DNA of 20,000 nucleotides from Chiloscyllium plagiosum (lineage: Eukaryota), in contig NC_057757.1 of assembly GCF_004010195.1 (NCBI RefSeq), forward strand, positions 8,639,257 through 8,659,256, given 5' to 3'. Under the pieces are notes generated by a model that ran no database searches, was not told where the DNA came from, and saw only the letters and a list, made by a program, of their open reading frames with translations. Below, piece after piece: positions 2,446 through 17,543 of this stretch; positions within the stretch are counted from its first letter, which is position 1, and each line of letters begins with the position of its first letter. The translations under genes and the position numbers were made by a program.

Positions 2446-3895
2446 TAGAATATACAACAATACAGTGCCAAAGAGGCCCTTTGGCCCTCAATGTTGTGCC
2501 GACCTGTGAGGTATTCTAAGCTCACCACACTCCCACACACACTATCCTATCATCATCCATGTGCTTATCCAAGGATTGCTTAAATTTCCCTCATGTGGCT
2601 GAGTTAACTACATTGTCAGGTAGGGCATTGCAAGTCTTTCCCTCTCTCCACGTAAACAATCTGCCTCTGACATCTGTCTTAAATCTATCTCCCTTCAATT
2701 TGCAGTTATATCCCATTGTATACGCTGATGTCATCATCCTCGGAAAAAAGGAATTTCACTGTCGCCCATATCTAATCCTCCGATCATCTTGCATGTCTCT
2801 ATCAAATCCCTTCTTAGCCTTCTTCTTTCCAATGAGAACAGACCCATGCCTCTCAGCCTTTCCTCGTAAGAGCTTCCTTCTAGACCAGGCAACTTCCTGA
2901 TAAATCCCCTCTGCACCTTCTGCAATGCTTGCACATCTTTCCTGTAATGAGGCGACCAGAACTGTACACAATATTCCAAGTGTTGCCGCACTAGCGTTTT
3001 TTATAGTTGCAGCATGACATTGCGGTTGCAGAATTCAATCCTGCTACCAATGAAACCTATTATACCATATGCCCTCTTAACAACATTATCAACTTGGGTG
3101 GCAACTTCAGAGATCTAGGTACATTGACTCTAAGGTCCCTCTTGACGTCCATACTACCAAAACATTTTCCATTGACCCATTGCCTTTCCATTGCCTTCCT
3201 ATTATTCTTCCCAAAGTGAACCACCTCGCATTGAACTCCATTTGCCACCTCTCAGCCCAATTCTGCAGTTTATCCACGTCCCCTTGCAACCTGTAACATT
3301 CTTCCACACTGTCCACGACTCCAGCCAGTTTTTAATCCAAACTGCTAAATCACCCTCCATCCCATGCCTCTGCATTTTCTCAAACAGCCTACCATGTGGA
3401 ATCTTATTAAAGGCTTTACTGAAGTCCATGTACACCACGTCAACTGCCCTACTTTCATCTACATGCTTGGTCACCTTTTCAAAAAACTCAATGACCTGCT
3501 CTTGACCAAACCATGTTGACTATCTGAAATCAAATTGTTGTGTGCTAGATGATTATAAATCTTATCTCTTTTAATCCTTTCCAAAACCTTTCATACAAAG
3601 AAGTAAGGCAAACTGGTCTATAATTACCTGGGTCATCTCTACTACCTTTATTGAACAAGGGCACAACATTTGCAATCTCCAGTTCTCTGGTATTGAACCT
3701 GTAGACAATGATGAAGCAAATATCAAAGCTCTGCTATCTCCTCCCTAGCTCCCCAGATAACTCCATCCGGCCCAGGGGACTTGTCACTCCTTGTAGAATT
3801 GATAACACCTGTTCACAACTAACCTCGATCCTTTTAGTCTAATATCTTGCATCTCATTAGTCTCTTCTACAATATTCTCCTTTTCCTGAATGGAA
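2446..3895 (-). mobile_element. CR1/HER1-type LINE fragment (RT region plus 3' tail) with an internal deletion
   Basis: Minus ORFs read AVDVVYMDFSKAFNKIPHGRL and RQHLEYCVQFWSPHYRKDV. The 3' tail lies at ~2446-2500. It interrupts the Gypsy integrase. Confidence 0.9.
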
Positions 3896-5516: not shown

Positions 5517-6048
5517 GATTAGATTCCCTACCGTATGGAAAAAGGCCATTTGGCCCAACAAGTCCATACTGACCCTCCAAAGAGTAACCACCCAGACCTA
5601 TTCCCCTACCCTATGTTGACCCCTGACCAATGCACCTAACACTATGGGCAATTTAGCATGACCAATTCACCTGACCAGCACATTTTTGGATTGTGGGAGG
5701 AAACTGGAGCACCCGGAGGGAACTCACGCAGACACAGGGAGAATGTGTAACCTCTGCACAGACAGTGACCTGCAAGAATTGCGCCTGTAAGGCAGCAGTG
5801 CTAACCACTGAGCCAGGTGAAAGTGGGGGCTGCAGATGCTGGAGATCAGAGTCCAGATTAGAGTGGTGCTGGAAAAGCACAGCAGGTGAGGCAACATCCA
5901 CAGAACAGGAAGATCGACGTTTCAGACAAAAGCCCTCCATCAGGAATTCCTCATGAAGGGCCTTTGCCCGAAACGTTGACTTTCCTGATCCTCGGGAGCT
6001 GCCTGACCGGCTGTGCTTTTTCAGCACCATTCTTACCACCGTGCTGCC
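5517..6048 (-). mobile_element. HE1-type tRNA-derived SINE (interrupted at 5816-6035)
   Basis: Reverse strand has head GGCAGCACGGTGG...CTCAGTGGTTAGCACTGCTGCC, body GGGTGCTCCAGTTTCCTCCCACAATCCAAAAATGTGC..GCTAAATTGCCCATAG, and tail GGGAATCTAATCT. Confidence 0.88.
5816..6035. mobile_element. Penelope-type palindromic element (imperfect inverted repeat 5860-6033) with degenerate hammerhead cores
   Basis: Homologous to 14048-14263. Axis GGAATTCC at 5943-5950. Minus strand has CTGATGG-A-GGGC-TTTT-GTCT-GAAAC-GTC; plus strand has CTCATGA-A-GGGC-CTTT-GCCC-GAAAC-GTT. Confidence 0.8.
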
Positions 6049-6771: not shown

Positions 6772-7950
6772 ATAGAACATAGAACAGTACAGCACAGAAC
6801 AGGCCCTTCAGCCCACGATGTTGTGCCGACCATTGATCCTCATGTATGCACCCTCAAATTTCTGTGACCATATGCATGTCCAGCAGTCTCTTAAATGTCC
6901 CCAATGACTTTGCTTCCACAACTGCTGTTGGCAATGCATTCCATGCTCTCACAACTCTCCATGTAAAGAACCCGCCTCTGACATCCCCTCTATACTTTCC
7001 TCCAACCAGCTAAAAACTATGACCCCTCGTGTTAGCCATTTCTGCCCTGGGAAATAGTCTCCGGCTATCGACTCTATCTATGCCTCTCATTATTTTGTAT
7101 ACCTCAATTAGGTCCCCTCTCGTCCTCCTTTTCTCCAATGAAAAAAGTCCAAGTTTAGTCAACCTCTCTTCATAAGGTAAGCCTTCCAGTCTAGGCATCA
7201 TCCTGGTAAACCTCCTCTGAATCCTCTCCAAAGCATCCACATCTTTCTTATAACAGGGCGACCAGAACTGGACCCAGTATTCCAAGTGTGGTCTAACGAA
7301 AGTTTTATAGAGCTGCAACAAGATCTCACGACTCTTAAACTCAGTCCCCGTTAATGACAGCCAAAACACCATATGTTTTCTTAACAACCCTGTCCACTTG
7401 GGTGGCCATTTTAAGGGATCTATGTACCTGCACCCCAAGATCCCTCTGTCCTTCCACACTGCCAAGAATCCAATCCTTAAGCCTGTACTCAGCTTTCAAA
7501 TTCGACTTTCCAAAACGCATCACCTCGCATTTATCCAGGTTGAACTCCATCTGCCACCTCTCAGCCCATCTCTGCATCTGGTCAATGTCCCGCTGCAGCC
7601 TACAACAGCCCTCTATACTGTCAACGCCACCTCCAACCTTTGTGTCATCTGCAAACTTGCTGACCCATCCTTCAATCCCCTCACCCAAGTCATTAATAAA
7701 AATTACAAACAGTAGAGACCCAAGGACAGAGCCCTGTGGAACACCACTCATCACTGACTTCCAGGCTGAATATTTTCCTTCTACTACCACTCGCTGTCTT
7801 CTGTTGGCCAGCCAATTCTGTATCCAGACAGCTAAGTTCCCCTGTATCCCATTCCTCCTGACCTTCTGAATGAGCCTACCATGGGGAACCTTATCAAATG
7901 CCTTGCTGAAGTCCATATACACTATATCCACAGCTCTACTCTCATCAACT
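6772..7950 (-). mobile_element. Young 5'-truncated CR1/HER1-type LINE (RT domain, one frameshift)
   Basis: Overlapping ORFs 7341-7931 (DFSKAFDKVPH, SGVPQGSVLG, SKFADDTK) and 7010-7465 (VRPHLEYWVQFWSP) join through a frameshift near 7350. The 3' end has a (TTCTATG)n-like tail. Confidence 0.95.
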
Positions 7951-8424
7951 TTTCTATTATATTTCCATTACCAGTCTTCAAACATTAAAGTGTCTCCATA
8001 TAATGACGATTATAATTTAGATTTTATTAAACTTAACGTGAGTCAAAAAGATTGTATCATAACCTTGCCTATTGATGCATTTACCCCCAGTGATGCAAGC
8101 TTTAGATGTTCCCAGTTCGTTTTTATATGAAGCATGAGTTTCTAAACGTTTATAAGCATTTGTATTTTTTCTAAACACAAACGTTTCTGAACCGACTGCA
8201 AGACACATAAAAGCGATATAAATCTTCAACTGATTTTTGAACTTATGGTATATTCATCCCACTGGCAGGGGGAAATAAATGTGATGACGTGTTTTCTATA
8301 AAACCCATTGGTTTGTCTCAAAGTAAGACACTTGGAAAACCAATTTCGGTGATATTTGTGAAGCTTACGGGACTACAATTCTCAAAAGAGTGGGAGTAAC
8401 ATAACTGCTTCTGCTGTGTCATAA

Positions 8425-8435
8425 CCCCAAGGGAG
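8425..8435. promoter_or_regulatory. Candidate O/E (Olf1/EBF/COE) binding site
   Basis: CCCCAAGGGAG matches the pseudo-palindromic YCCCNNGGGA consensus and ends 13 bp before the TATA box. Confidence 0.45.
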
Positions 8436-8447
8436 GTTCTCCACTAT

Positions 8448-8453
8448 TATAAA
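8448..8453 (+). promoter_or_regulatory. Candidate TATA box of the GPCR gene
   Basis: TATAAA starts 67 bp upstream of the predicted ATG at 8515, in non-repeat sequence. Confidence 0.5.
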
Positions 8454-8514
8454 TCAATGCCTTCTCTCAGTTACTTATCCCACAGAGTCGGTTGGAATCT
8501 TGTGTCCAGATACA

Positions 8515-8614
8515 ATGAGAGCTCCATTCACTTTCTACCCCTTTCTCGAGCTACCTCCCATTGTACAGATCATAATGGTTTACTATCCAACAATAGCGGC
8601 CATTGCCATTCCAG
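8515..8614 (+). CDS. GPR139/GPR142-like class A GPCR, coding exon 1
   Basis: ACAATGA start gives MRAPFTFYPFLELPPIVQIIMVYYPTIAAIAIP, the first half of TM1. It ends at the donor CCAG|GTTAGT (phase 1), in frame with exon 2. Confidence 0.85.
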
Positions 8615-8834
8615 GTTAGTGATTATAACCAGTTTCTAAAGCTAAAGTGTCTTTGTTTAACTCTGTTACTGACTTTATGTAAATTAGCGAAACGAGAGCT
8701 CTAACTTTGATTGAAAGACTAACTACCACAGATAGCGATTATTTGTTGCTTTCATGTGTTAAAATTGATTGTGTTGTTGAAATCGTTGCAATCTACAAAA
8801 ACGGCGCCAGCTATTTTAAATTACAGGCAAAACG

Positions 8835-8930
8835 CCCGTGAAAGCGCTGTGGAAACATACCAGGTCAGGCCACATAACTGGAGAGAGAATCAGTGCACAT
8901 TTCACGTCTAGTGTGACTTCTTCAGAGCTT
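8835..8930 (-). mobile_element. Remnant of an old Penelope-like element arm in the GPCR intron
   Basis: CAGGTCAGGC...GGAGAGAGAA..ACATTTC..TTCTTCAG resembles the palindrome arm. The minus strand retains CTGAAGA-A-GTC..GAC.TGAAATGT. Confidence 0.45.
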
Positions 8931-9589
8931 AGAATAATGCAGCTGTTCTCTTCATTTAATGTCAGCCAAGCTGACACAAGATTCAGAAAGGTGGCACAGT
9001 CACAATTGGCTGTATAGCTTCATTCTGTGCTGTAGTAATCCTGTTATGCTGCCAAAGGTGATTGAAATTTTTTTTTTGCACATTATCAACCTAATTTCTC
9101 TTCATTCGTACATAAACCATTTTTGATGTTCATCTGCAAAAAGACTCTACACCCTCTAAATTTAAAACCCAATATCGTTTTCTCATAATTCAGAGAATAT
9201 ATGACATTCACGTTGTCCCTGTTGAGGTGAGTAGAACTGAAATGCGACACATTGCATTCCATCTACCCTGTCCTTCCTTTATCTCCTGATGCAATTTCTT
9301 TGATTTTCCTGCACCCACAAACACTATGCATTTCTATGATCACCAACTCGAAAACTGAATCAGCAGCAAACTTGTTTGGGAAGCATTCAATGACCTTAAC
9401 TATACTATCAACATAGATTATAAATGTAAATGTTCCAAGTATGATGTTTACACCATACAGCTCAGTGCAACTTAATAAAATGAAAAAAAGTTATTCCAGC
9501 TACTTTGTTTCTTTATTTATTAATCAATATTTTGAGCCTATGTTACCATAACAACACATAAATCGTCACTGTTGATTGTTCTATGTTGC

Positions 9590-9752
9590 TCATGTTTTTA
9601 GGGAAGGTAATCTTCGATCTTTACCTGTCTAGCTGACACGTGACTCCAGACACACAGCAATGTGTTTGCCTCTGAGCTAACTTTTGTGCAATTAGAAATG
9701 GATAGTCAATGCTGGCTTTGGCCAGTGATGCTCATATCCATTGAATGAGCAT
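9590..9752 (+). mobile_element. Ancient SINE 3' portion with an L2-like tail, in the GPCR intron
   Basis: TTTAGGGAAGG...GTGACTCCAGAC.CACAGCAATGTG...AATGCTGGC...GCCAGTGATGCTCATATCC..TGAATGA, recognised as a common cartilaginous-fish SINE tail. Confidence 0.55.
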
Positions 9753-9779
9753 TCGATAAAGTGTCCTTCTCTTTTACAG

Positions 9780-10681
9780 CCAACTTGATGACAATCGTGA
9801 TTCTCTCACGGGGAAATTGTGGTCTCTCTAACTGTGTGACTCGATATTTGGTGGCCATGGCAGTGGCAGATCTACTAGTCATTATCAATTATGTGATCCT
9901 GACACGAATTAAGGACTCTTATTTCCCGACTAATTTCCTGTTCATGACTCCTTTCTGTTCACTGCAATCTGCCCTGAATCATATTTCCACCGACATTTCA
10001 GTCTGGCTCACAGTTGCATTTACTTTTGATCGCTTTATTGCTATTTGTTGCCACAAACTCAAGACTAAGTATTGCACCGAAAGAACAGCAACCACCGTTA
10101 TAGGAACTGTCTGTCCAATCTTCTGTTTAAAGAACATACCATGGTATTTTGCATATGAAGCCTACAATATAACTGGCTTGATCCCATGGGGTTGTAGTAG
10201 AAAACTTGAGTATTACACTGTAGCTGCTTGGATAGCATTCAATTGGATTCACCGGTGGTTGACACCATTGATTCCAATATTTTTGATATTTCTCTTCAAC
10301 GCTTTTACTGTAGGACACATTTTGGCAGCGAGTAAAACCCGGAGGAGACTCAGAGCCAGTCGGAATGATAGGGATCAAAGTGATCCCAAGATACAGAGCA
10401 GGAGAAAGTCTGTTATCTTACTCTTTGCCATATCCAGCTACTTTGTTCTTCTCTGGGTGTCATATGTTGTTTATTTTGTGTTACTCCGCGTTACAACACA
10501 TTATTACACAACAGGATACAGTGATCCAATGTATATCGCAGACCAAACCAGCCACATGCTCCTCCTTTTGAGTTGCTGCACCAACACGTGTATTTATGTG
10601 ATGACCCAAAGTAAATTTCGAGAGCAGCTAACCAAGCTGGTGAAATATCCAGTGAAGATTATCTGTAAATCTATTAAATAA
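9780..10681 (+). CDS. GPR139/GPR142-like class A GPCR, coding exon 2 (TM1 second half to stop)
   Basis: Acceptor TCCTTCTCTTTTACAG|C at 9779/9780. Open frame includes ANL (TM1), AMAVADLL (TM2), FTFDRFIAICC (TM3), IPWYF (TM4), PLIP (TM5), LLWVSY (TM6), SCCTNTCIY (TM7) and helix 8 SKFREQL. Spliced CDS is 1002 nt, 333 aa. Confidence 0.93.
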
Positions 10682-10869: not shown

Positions 10870-10875
10870 AATAAA
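10870..10875 (+). other. Candidate polyadenylation signal of the GPCR
   Basis: AATAAA about 190 nt after the stop. Another AATAAA overlaps the stop codon (10677-10682). Confidence 0.4.
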
Positions 10876-11160: not shown

Positions 11161-11292
11161 TTCCATCTATCTGTCTGTCTATCTATCTCTCCACGTCTGT
11201 CTGTCTATCTCTGTATTATCTGTATACCTGTACTGTCCGTCCGTCCGTCCGTCCATCCATCCATCCATCCATCTATCCATCCATCTATCTAT
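11161..11292. repeat. Compound tetranucleotide microsatellite (TCTA/TCTG/TCCG/TCCA)n
   Basis: Directly visible runs, e.g. (GTCC)5 followed by (ATCC)n. Confidence 0.9.
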
Positions 11293-13690: not shown

Positions 13691-14139
13691 TGTTGCCATG
13701 TGGATGTGTGCCCAATATAGTGGTGTCAATTTTCCCAGCCACCTTCATCTTCGTTTCAACCATTAGCTCCAGCACTTCCATTTCACAGGTCAAATCCACC
13801 TTCGATTTCCTCTACTTTCATTATTTTTGTAACATAAAGAAGGGGGTCATCATCTGCCTGTCCTTCCAACAGGGTTCAGTAATATGTCAAAGCAGTTATG
13901 GTTGCAAGGTGGGTCAGTGGTTAGGAATGCTTCCTGATCGCGTGAGAGACCCATGCTCTCCACGTATCTGCGTAGGTTTCCTCTGGGTGCTCTGACTGCC
14001 TCCCACAGTCTGATTCAGGTTAGGTGGATTGGTCAAGCTGAATTGCCGAGAGAAAGTGAGGGCTGCAGATGCTGGAGATCAGAGCTGAAAATGTGTTGCT
14101 GGAAAAGCGCAGCAGGTCAGGCAGCATCCAAGGAACAGG

Positions 14140-14179
14140 AGAATCGACGTTTCGGGCATAAGCCCTTCTTCAGGATTCC
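14140..14179 (-). ncRNA. Minimal type I hammerhead ribozyme (PLE-like), minus strand
   Basis: GGAAUC-CUGAAGA-A-GGGC-UUAU-GCCC-GAAA-C-GUC/GAUUCU. The core is intact, with a 4-bp stem II, a 6-bp stem I (one G-U) and a palindromic ACGU in place of stem III. Confidence 0.75.
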
Positions 14180-14212
14180 TGAAGAAGGGCTTATGCCCGA
14201 AACGTCGATTCT
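14173..14212 (+). ncRNA. Minimal type I hammerhead ribozyme (PLE-like), plus strand
   Basis: Mirror copy: core CUGAAGA 14179-14185, stem II 14187-14198, GAAA 14199-14202, GUC 14204-14206. Stem I has one U-U mismatch at the palindrome axis. Confidence 0.7.
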
Positions 14213-14477
14213 CCTGTTCCTTGGATGCTGCCTGACCTGCTGCGCTTTTCCAGCAACACATTTTCAAGCTGAATTGCCCCATAGTGTCTACCGATGTGCA
14301 GGCTGGGTGGGTTAGCTCTGTTAATTAGGGTAGAGGGATGTGACTGGGTGTGATCCTCTTTGGCGGGTCGTGTGAACTCCACAGGCTGAATGGCCTGCTC
14401 CCAAACTGCAGGGATTCTATAATCCATTCTGGATGAGAAGCAATTGAAATGCCTTTTGTACCTGGCTTGGCCAAGGG

Positions 14478-14670
14478 CTCTAGCAGTGCAATGGCAGTGT
14501 CTCCACCTCTGAGCCAGGAGGGCCTGAGTTCAAACCCCACTTGCTCCAAGGTGTGTCATACCATCTCTGAGCAGTTTCCATTGGAAAGTACCCGGGGGGC
14601 TTCTGGTAGTCATGTCCTTGAGTTATGGAAGAACCATGTTTGTGTCCCACCTCCCACCAAGGGGTGTTAG
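14478..14670 (+). mobile_element. Older tRNA-derived SINE (with a probable second partial head)
   Basis: GCAGTGCAATGGCAGTGTCTCCACCTCTGAGCCAGGAGG..GAGTTCAAACCCCAC has A-box and B-box-like elements. Confidence 0.5.
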
Positions 14671-15337: not shown

Positions 15338-15845
15338 AGTCATAGGGTCATAGGTCACAGAGTGCTACAGCACGGAGCCAGGTCCTTTAGCCCTAACTGT
15401 TCTATGCCAACCAAAATGTCCATCCATTCTAACGCCATGTCCCTGCACTTGGCCTACGTCCTTATGGTCCTTTCATAAACATATATTTGTCCAAATTCCC
15501 CTTAAGTATTGTTAATGTATCCGCCTCAACCACTTCCTCTGGCAGCTCATTCCATTTGCGTACCACACGCTGTGTGAAAAAGTTGCCCCTCATGTTCCCT
15601 TTTATTCTTTCCCCTCTAACCGAAAACTGATTACCTCTAGTCTTCGATTCCCCAACCCTGGGTAAAAGACTGAGTGCGTTCACTCTGTCCATGTCTCTCA
15701 TAGTCTTATAAACCTCTATAAGTTGCCCCCTCAGTCTCCTACAGTCTAAAGAAAGAAGTCCTAGCTTATCCAACCTATCCCTATAGCTCAGACCCTTACC
15801 TCCTGGCAACAACTTTGTAAATTTCTTCTGTAAACTTTCCAGCAC
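15338..15845 (-). mobile_element. CR1/HER1 3' fragment
   Basis: ORF 15462-15845 reads GLSYRDRLDKLGLLSLDCRRLRGQLIEVYK...NFFTQRVVRKWNELP. Tail is (CTATGAC)n-like. Confidence 0.9.
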
Positions 15846-15849
15846 TTCT

Positions 15850-16300
15850 TCAACATTATTCAGGTTTCTGCATCTACCGTCCTTAAAGACAGTGTGTTTC
15901 AGATTCCTGTAAACCTCTGAGTGAAACTATTTTTTCCTGACACTAACCTCAAATGTATGGCCCCGGCCATTTCTTCCTGCACCAAGGGGAAAGATTTCTT
16001 CCAGTCTATCCTATTAATGCTCCTCATAATTTTATATATCTATATCTATATAATACATCATATAAATAAAGATATCTATTCATTTACACATGGTGACAAT
16101 ATGGATTGCACTGCCTGGGAAGTCAGTGAAGGCTGGAAACCTTCCAACTTTAAAAAAAAAATTGGTTGATTTCTTCAAATATCAGAACATTCAAGGATAT
16201 GGGGCGAATGCAGGAAATTGGGATTAGTGCACCGTCAGTGCTAGTTATGTCAGAACAGACACAATGGGCTGAAGTGTCTTTCCTGCTTTGGATGTATCAA
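15850..16300. mobile_element. Two degenerate CR1 3' fragments in opposite orientations
   Basis: A minus fragment (~15850-16035) and a plus fragment (~16080-16295) with CR1 3'-end motifs, separated by an AT-rich linker. Confidence 0.5.
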
Positions 16301-16788: not shown

Positions 16789-17228
16789 AGAGTCATGGAG
16801 ATGCACAGCAGGGAAACAGACACTTCAGTCCAAACGTGCATGCTGACCAAATATCCTAAATTAATCTAGTCCCATTTGCCAGCATATGGCCCACATTCCT
16901 CTAAATCTTCCCTATTCATATAACCATCCAGGTGCCTTTTAAATGTTGCAATTGTACCAGCCTCCATCACTTCCTCTGGCAACCCATTCCACTCACGCAC
17001 CCCTCTCTACATGAAAATGTTTCCCTTTAGGTCCCTTTTAACTCTGTCCTCTCTCACCCTACATGTATGCACTCTAGATCTGGGCTGTTCCACACCAAGG
17101 AAAATACATTGCTGATTTATTATATCCATGCTCCTCATGATTTTATAAATCTCTATGAGGTCCCTGCTTAGCCTCTGACGCTCGGAAAATAGTCCCAGTT
17201 CAATCAACCTTTCCCTGTAGCTCAAGTT
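16789..17228 (-). mobile_element. CR1/HER1 3' fragment
   Basis: LSYRERLIELGLFSERQRLSRDLIEIYKIMR, plus the CR1 tail. Confidence 0.88.
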
Positions 17229-17229
17229 A

Positions 17230-17543
17230 GTTCCACTCAAAGACAAAGGAAGGGATTCATACCTGGAGTCAGAGGAAGTGGGTGAGGTCCTTTCACTGGT
17301 GTTTGCTTAGTGGAAGGATAAGGATTCGGGATGATTAGGGTAAGTTTAGGGAGGCTACACTGACATTTGAGGATATGTTGATATTTTAGGTTACATTATA
17401 TCATGAAGGAGGAAGTATTAGGTGACAGAAAGACGTTAAGATAACTAAGCCCCTGAGGACCTGATGGTATGTATCCTGGGATACTGTAGGAGGCAGGAGA
17501 GGAAATTACTGGGGCCTTGACAGAAACCTTTGTATCATCTTTA
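17230..17543 (+). mobile_element. Degenerate CR1 ORF2 internal fragment
   Basis: Motifs resembling K.PGPDGMYP.IL.EA.EEITGALTE.F. Confidence 0.65.

Follow-up and report, generated by a model that had tools for sequence, protein, structure and literature searches.

Which kind of receptor is encoded by the gene at positions 8515 to 10681 of a 20,000-nucleotide stretch of the Chiloscyllium plagiosum genome, and what might this receptor detect? The stretch, hereafter called the window, corresponds to positions 8,639,257 to 8,659,256 of contig NC_057757.1 (RefSeq assembly GCF_004010195.1), and the coordinates below count from its first letter. The first-pass annotation, made from the letters alone, had proposed an intact two-exon G-protein coupled receptor (GPCR), an orphan, which is not the GPR139 orthologue and belongs to a lineage-expanded, uncharacterised family. 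The analysis described here upheld the intact gene, supported its membership in a large elasmobranch expansion of GPR139-related receptors by sequence comparison, and raised the possibility of a chemosensory role.

The locus was found to hold a class A GPCR gene with two exons and an unbroken frame. Exon 1 (8515–8614, + strand; 100 nt), coding for the short N-terminus and most of the first transmembrane helix (TM1), starts with ATG and ends at the donor CAG/GTTAGT, and exon 2 (9780–10681, + strand), coding for the end of TM1 through helix 8 and the stop codon, follows an acceptor composed of a pyrimidine tract and CAG. Joined in phase 1, the two exons gave 1002 nt encoding 333 amino acids with zero internal stops. 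Exon 1 was also located by homology, as four annotated proteins of sharks and skates (P0010, P0011, P0055 and P0022) aligned with their N-termini to 8515–8616 by tblastn with E values from 5e-9 to 5e-4. From the splice signals and this homology we infer splicing at 8614/9780, which bears out the phase-1 junction and the 333-residue product proposed earlier. The GT-AG intron (8615–9779, + strand; 1165 bp) contains a short piece of high-copy repeat near 9600–9700, as seen from repeat depth. The exon-2 product matched Pfam 7tm_1 above the cut-off (E 9e-19), and its AlphaFold model (mean predicted local distance difference test score 84.6) consisted of long helices in a helical bundle, for which Foldseek returned class A GPCRs with TM-scores of about 0.7. 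The neurotensin receptor was placed ahead of GPR139 in that search by small margins, an order that says nothing on kinship. A Pfam Orf78 match to the same product fell below the cut-off and was rejected. DNA contigs from two samples, one of which is possibly the source of the assembly, spanned the locus. The remainder of the window was decayed sequence resembling long interspersed nuclear elements (LINEs) and other repeats, in agreement with the description of an intact gene amid decayed repeats.

The search with the exon-2 protein returned 2,151 proteins at E<=1e-3 out of 2,908 candidates, and the best 120 matches came exclusively from 14 shark and ray species with identities of 51–85%, the nearest being a zebra-shark protein (85%). 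Automatic names of the form 'probable/putative G-protein coupled receptor 139' were carried by 114 of these 120, consistent with the statement in the first-pass annotation that many such paralogues are present in shark annotations; proteins of the same clade are elsewhere named, also automatically, GPR15-like, capa receptor-like or vasopressin V2 receptor-like. The count and clustering of paralogues, proposed earlier as a check, gave 41 horn-shark proteins among the best 120, 21 of which lie on contigs that all have the same length, as well as several database models that merge two neighbouring family copies. The fused models P0014, P0020, P0021, P0023, P0045 and P0095 point to tandem arrays and to poor reliability of exon-1 calls in automatic annotation. 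In DNA contigs of the same organism, at 80% likeness, the summed depth reached 9,611 on a conserved coding segment of TM2 versus 9–14 on unique sequence, a rough measure that gives no copy number and nevertheless indicates hundreds of paralogues in this organism. No second family copy or fragment was found in the 20-kb window by tblastn with 16 relatives or by a family hidden Markov model over six frames.

Phylogenetic trees were built from chosen sequences, 92 with FastTree and 59 with IQ-TREE in its quick mode; true GPR139 and GPR142 were not among them, and the root was placed on long-branched invertebrate peptide-receptor-like proteins. The gene formed one clade with a single zebra-shark and a single horn-shark protein (support 99–100), nested in a subfamily that has a longer exon 1 and also includes skate and ray proteins (support 100). 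These match counts, contig depths and the nesting in a multi-copy clade support placing the gene in a large expansion of GPR139-related receptors among elasmobranchs, and the earlier proposal of a lineage-expanded, uncharacterised family was thus borne out. The expansion was not described in the full-text literature searched, a coverage outside which most subscription journals and bioRxiv supplements fall. GPR139 was not mentioned in the main text of a catshark sensory-genome paper (PMC11979771), GPR142 appeared once, as an orthogroup label, in the supplements of PMC8455134, and nothing was found in those of PMC13188829. The family is apparently undescribed, and it is the family that is unusual, the window gene being an ordinary, well-conserved member.

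The best 120 relatives also served for counting signature motifs. The class A anchors N35 (N1.50), D64 (D2.50), R118 (R3.50), P199 (P5.50), W259 (W6.48), N302 (N7.49) and Y306 (Y7.53) were all present, together with the cysteine pair C93 (C3.25) and C172 in the second extracellular loop (ECL2), and were near-invariant across the relatives; W6.48 was kept in 118, N7.49 in all 120, and T7.50 and Y7.53 in 119 each. The usual class A prolines at 6.50 and 7.50 are both missing from the protein, which has S261 and T303 there, and were seen in only 4 and 1 of the 120 relatives. The third position of the DR motif was F in 107 relatives, Y in 8 and C in 5. DRF lies at 117, LLWVSY at 257, NTCIY at 302 and ILSRGNCGLS at 41, each of them a motif named in the first-pass annotation. 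Its description of these as atypical activation motifs holds for their presence but not as a peculiarity of this gene; they are common to the family, and human GPR139 likewise lacks the NPxxY proline. The same applies to ILSRGNCGLS, which indeed forms the first intracellular loop (ICL1) and had been called distinctive; it is a near-invariant family segment from which only N46 departs, a residue private to this gene (1/120). The protein carries the family signature, consisting of I-L-S-R-G-[KR]-C-G-L-S in ICL1, DR-F, L-L-W-x-x-Y, C-T-N-T-x-I-Y and T-Q-x-K-F-R. Divergent family members were observed in stingray, skate and catshark (P0186, P0183 and P0195). As P0195 and P0183 retain the TM6 proline, its loss occurred inside the expansion or repeatedly.

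The N-terminus, as had been noted, is short and has no Asn ahead of N35; its 34 residues preceding N1.50 were matched in 9 of the 120 relatives, and 77 have just 24 residues there. The NIT sequon reported in ECL2 is present at 163 and is the sole sequon of the protein. It was rejected as a functional feature, as it is missing from the zebra-shark partner and an ECL2 sequon occurs in only 4 of the 120 relatives.

A sensitive search yielded 971 clusters at E<=1e-3, and relatives from outside the sharks were found among the best 150 and by look-ups of 20 matches. They formed three low-copy vertebrate lineages, likewise auto-named GPR139, with about one copy per listed species and 25–35% identity to the window protein: lineage A in sharks, coelacanth, sturgeon, teleosts, amphibians, turtles, squamates and crocodile, lineage B in amphibians and lineage C in ray-finned fish. 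The shark family and lineage B grouped together (support 0.92 in FastTree and 93 in IQ-TREE) and share the ICL3 motif D-P-E...R-R-x-S, and lineages A–C plus the shark family were separated from the invertebrate outgroups with a support of 99 (IQ-TREE). Support for the whole family as a monophyletic group excluding lineage B was weak (SH-aLRT 2), and lineages A and C were placed differently in the two trees. These groupings support the view that the family is shark- and ray-expanded, yet not shark-specific in origin, with lineage B, the nearest non-shark relative found, as a candidate for the ancestral single-copy state. Unlike the shark family, the three lineages have a conserved pocket and a basic residue at 6.51 (R or K in 100%), and P6.50 is kept in B and C. 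Lineage A (P0228, P0294, P0335, P0345, P0364, P0374, P0390 and others) has S or C at 6.48, T at 6.50 and an invariant R6.51; it is annotated as a TMEM183A isoform in zebra shark and a frog, suggesting a conserved neighbour, and neither bird nor mammal appeared among the 120 matches listed. Lineage B (P0231, P0324, P0332, P0336 and P0344) has a highly conserved pocket and reads W-L-P-K in TM6. Lineage C (P0263 and P0396–P0514) ranges from bowfin to percomorphs with S-L-P-R in TM6, and its automatic name may mislead studies of fish GPR139.

Could the gene be the shark orthologue of GPR139 or GPR142, sensing L-Trp and L-Phe? Human GPR139 was the best solved relative of the gene (E 1.7e-9), of the family profile (9.4e-18) and of a second profile (1.8e-33). 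Compared with GPR139 (human; PDB 7vug and 9m42) and GPR142, the protein shares a short N-terminus with Y-Y in TM1, N-x-x-T-x-x-I-L-S, S-x-W in TM3, W-I-H at 5.43, W6.48, the lack of proline at 7.50 and F-R in helix 8. Human GPR139 has N-F-F-L-Y in TM7, so that the loss of P7.50 is old in the GPR139 group. The differences are nevertheless extensive: DRF stands in place of DRY, P6.50 is missing, ECL2 is longer and holds the C93–C172 pair (a predicted disulfide), ICL3 is longer, and hundreds of paralogues in the shark family contrast with the one gene of GPR139. The TM6 sequence W-A-P-R with R6.51, retained in human GPR139, is W-V-S-Y here, and no W-A-P-R protein was present among the 395 proteins examined from the searches. 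In an alignment to GPR139 with the numbering of PMC5430874 and PMC8807744, two of the five residues of the Trp/Phe site were kept (H5.43 as H191 and W6.48 as W259), and three were replaced (F3.33 to H, R6.51 to Y and N7.38 to H). Because F109 and N271 mutants of GPR139 are described as losing most of the Trp/Phe response (PMC5430874), sensing of Trp/Phe in the GPR139 manner is unlikely. The protein is only about 24% identical to human GPR139, against 27–66% within the other lineages found, and the gene is nested in a multi-copy clade. Orthology can thus hardly be the case, in agreement with the first-pass annotation.

The variation of the putative ligand pocket was then compared between paralogues and orthologues at 26 positions drawn from the GPR139 papers, in an alignment of 102 of the 120 relatives (290–365 residues) with 83 lineage A, 19 lineage B and 119 lineage C sequences. 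Across the 102 relatives, the entropy was 1.37 bits in the outer halves of the helices versus 0.70 in the inner halves, and reached 1.51 in the pocket (p 6e-6). The same pattern was found in 38 horn-shark paralogues, which had 35 distinct fingerprints at the 12 most variable pocket sites. In lineages A, B and C, by contrast, the ratio of pocket to inner entropy was 0.67, 0.15 and 0.62, i.e., the pocket was more conserved than the inner halves. The pocket of the window protein agreed at 23 of 25 positions with its zebra-shark partner P0003 and at 23 of 26 with its horn-shark partner P0004, compared with a median pocket identity of 42% to the 102 relatives. Of all 102 relatives, P0004 alone had a higher identity in the pocket than in the inner TM halves; the zebra-shark model is shorter and lay outside this set. 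A pocket variable among paralogues and fixed among orthologues, as seen here, is the pattern of a differently tuned receptor repertoire, in whatever tissue, and a large clustered repertoire with such a pocket is what characterises olfactory-type families.

The sequence upstream of the gene was examined for promoter elements. The near-palindrome CCCCAAGGGA (8425–8434), a candidate promoter element, fits the Ebf/Olf-1 (O/E) consensus. It lies 14 bp 5' of a TATAAA box (8448–8453, + strand) and 81 bp 5' of the ATG; the TATAAA itself, 67 bp ahead of the ATG and weak alone given 30 occurrences in the window, would fit a short 5' untranslated region. The pattern [CT]CCCNNGGG[AG] had 2 matches in the 20 kb, with CCCCAAGGGA as the sole non-coding one, and an Ebf-like site within 200 bp ahead of the ATG arose in 0.3% of shuffles (p 0.003), in a post hoc test of one promoter. 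A one-mismatch homeodomain hexamer adjoins the site. An out-of-frame upstream ATG at 8457, directly 3' of the TATA box, likely precedes the transcription start. In mouse, olfactory receptor promoters are enriched in Ebf and Lhx2 sites (PMC5608512).

The best reading, held at about even odds, is that the gene encodes a receptor with a chemosensory function, responding to some water-soluble molecule that is neither free Trp nor free Phe. The further proposal, advanced tentatively and at somewhat less than an even chance, is that sharks and rays possess a smell-receptor family of hundreds of genes, exceeding all their known olfactory receptors, which was co-opted from GPR139-related peptide receptors in parallel with nematode srw; the window gene would be among its old members, its pocket having stayed the same from one shark order to another. 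The support for a chemosensory role is circumstantial: the size and pattern of the family, the short N-terminus, the Ebf-like site, the small known repertoire and the srw parallel. Sharks are described as having only about 10–50 known olfactory receptors and large noses, and Go/TRPC2-positive microvillous cells as the sole olfactory neuron type reported in the shark nose (PMC10116579). The chemoreceptor candidates of the nematode srw family go back to FMRFamide/myosuppressin receptors (PMC2576165), and that receptor group has been linked to GPR139 (PMC12208981). In the mechanism proposed, every receptor of the family would recognise a ligand of its own; given descent from the GPR139/FMRFamide/MIP-receptor group, these ligands would be small peptides or derivatives of amino acids. 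All members would share a common G-protein interface, comprising the intact DR, N7.49, Y7.53 and K-F-R in helix 8. The Ebf-type promoter site would direct expression to sensory neurons, and in the shark nose this would occur in Go/TRPC2-positive microvillous cells, proposed because these make up the catshark olfactory neurons (PMC10116579). The window gene would detect a cue stable enough for the receptor to be retained since the split of carpet sharks and horn sharks.

Several observations weigh against a role in smell. No canonical homeodomain site TAAT[GT][AG] occurs within 500 bp of the ATG, the nearest being at 8001, and the gene stands alone in its 20 kb. A variable pocket is compatible with any family whose ligands have diversified, including immune families, and the sister-lineage sets used for comparison consist of orthologues, for which conservation is expected anyway. 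In the single-cell runs X5 and X6, of unspecified tissue, 0 reads of this gene at >=95% were found in the 2–6% of each run that was read, and no read crossed the 8614/9780 junction in the sampled runs. At 80% likeness, X5 gave 42 reads, mostly on repeat pieces and a few, of both orientations, on conserved coding segments, and X6 none, and X7 gave short paralogue-like contigs at a depth of 3–16; the X5 and X7 signal is too weak to count as expression. Such paralogue-like reads in RNA-type runs may reflect expression outside the nose or DNA carry-over. A top-50 list for catshark 'brain & olfactory epithelium' is without any GPCR (PMC11979771), although such a list is uninformative for sparse receptors.

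The same pattern of paralogues and clustering would fit equally well an immune-cell repertoire of chemoattractant or microbial-peptide sensors, in the style of formyl-peptide and chemokine receptors, with the Ebf site driving expression in the B lineage or other leukocytes. Since Ebf1 is also early B-cell factor, the Ebf-like site cannot separate the nose from the immune system, and the low-level paralogue signal in RNA-type runs of unspecified tissue would be in line with an immune role. Chemokine receptors typically have acidic extended N-termini, which are missing here, as the 24 residues ahead of N1.50 in most relatives illustrate; moreover, no immune GPCR family is known to reach hundreds of copies, and the best solved relative is the neural GPR139. 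An immune repertoire thus appears unlikely. Ebf factors act in many neurons, and the family pattern would also suit a repertoire of sensory or epithelial receptors outside the olfactory system (in skin, gut, somatosensory ganglia or sperm) that serves as a functional analogue of the mammalian MRGPRs, but the family size is closer to olfactory repertoires and we regard this as quite unlikely, even with the report that cartilaginous fishes are without MAS1-related receptors (PMC8455134).

Two further explanations concern the window gene itself. A single close partner in zebra shark and another in horn shark, both with almost the same pocket, and the isolation of the gene would suit a receptor whose ligand is an endogenous peptide or metabolite and whose physiological role is fixed, whatever the family does. 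In other species the subfamily includes many paralogues of recent origin, and odorant-receptor families also contain conserved one-to-one members, so that such a role seems very unlikely. It is also conceivable that segmental duplication produced most of the expansion as a side effect and that the window copy is open but silent or neutral, as zero transcripts in the sampled runs and the many partial or chimeric database models in the family would allow. Against this stand the open frame and pocket kept in comparison with the zebra-shark and horn-shark partners, the near-invariant motifs of the inner face over the 120 relatives, and the variants of the DNA runs relative to the window, which were concentrated in the intron (9 intronic and 1 coding, the latter synonymous; p 0.02 pooled and 0.09 for the run aligned at 95%), although paralogue depth can hide coding variants in such counts. 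A neutral copy is accordingly highly improbable.

The flanks of the gene hold no neighbouring gene within the 20-kb window and no satellite upstream of the gene. The first AATAAA 3' of the stop codon, at 10870–10875 (+ strand), is a candidate polyadenylation signal by motif only. A TCCA microsatellite at 11236–11289 lies inside a longer TCTA/TCTG-rich tract 3' of the gene, and a perfect inverted repeat at 14086–14266 consists of two 90-nt arms with a 1-nt spacer, with related sequence near 5750–5950 and 14400–14500. Decayed LINE reverse-transcriptase fragments of the CR1/L2 type were recognised from ORF translations on the − strand at 2730–3520, 7010–7970, 15460–15930 and 17000–17310, the second of which stops about 550 bp ahead of the ATG.

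New in this work are a conserved family member with identifiable partners in zebra shark and horn shark, the contrast in the pocket between orthologues and paralogues, and three low-copy sister lineages, which constitute unnamed vertebrate orphan receptors that would give the ancestral state. A receptor family without P6.50 and P7.50 is also relevant to the mechanics of activation. If the smell-receptor reading is true, the window gene would be a good first target in a hunt for ligands. A whale-shark paper describes cartilaginous fishes as GPCR-poor (PMC8455134), a claim contradicted by hundreds of GPR139-related receptors standing under an automatic name, whatever their function. Expression of the family in the nose, if found, would resolve the puzzle of few olfactory receptors versus large olfactory organs (PMC10116579).

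Compared with the vertebrate OR, TAAR, V1R/ORA and V2R/OlfC families, the shark family is alike in being large and clustered with a variable pocket and a constant cytoplasmic face, and resembles the olfactory receptor families also in its very short N-terminus and possibly, judging from one promoter, in an Ebf-like site. It differs in having no family homology to them, as just 2 of 98 members gave a Pfam 7tm_4 match, and a weak one (E 0.0013); the shark receptors could thus work like such a family, yet are not members of one. Look-alikes in the Atlas bear Srw or Srx Pfam matches. The shark expansion is independent of nematode srw (Srw matched 0 of the 98 shark members and Srx 7), but it resembles srw, itself a birth-and-death expansion out of the FMRFamide/myosuppressin receptor group whose members have been proposed to detect peptides in the environment (PMC2576165).

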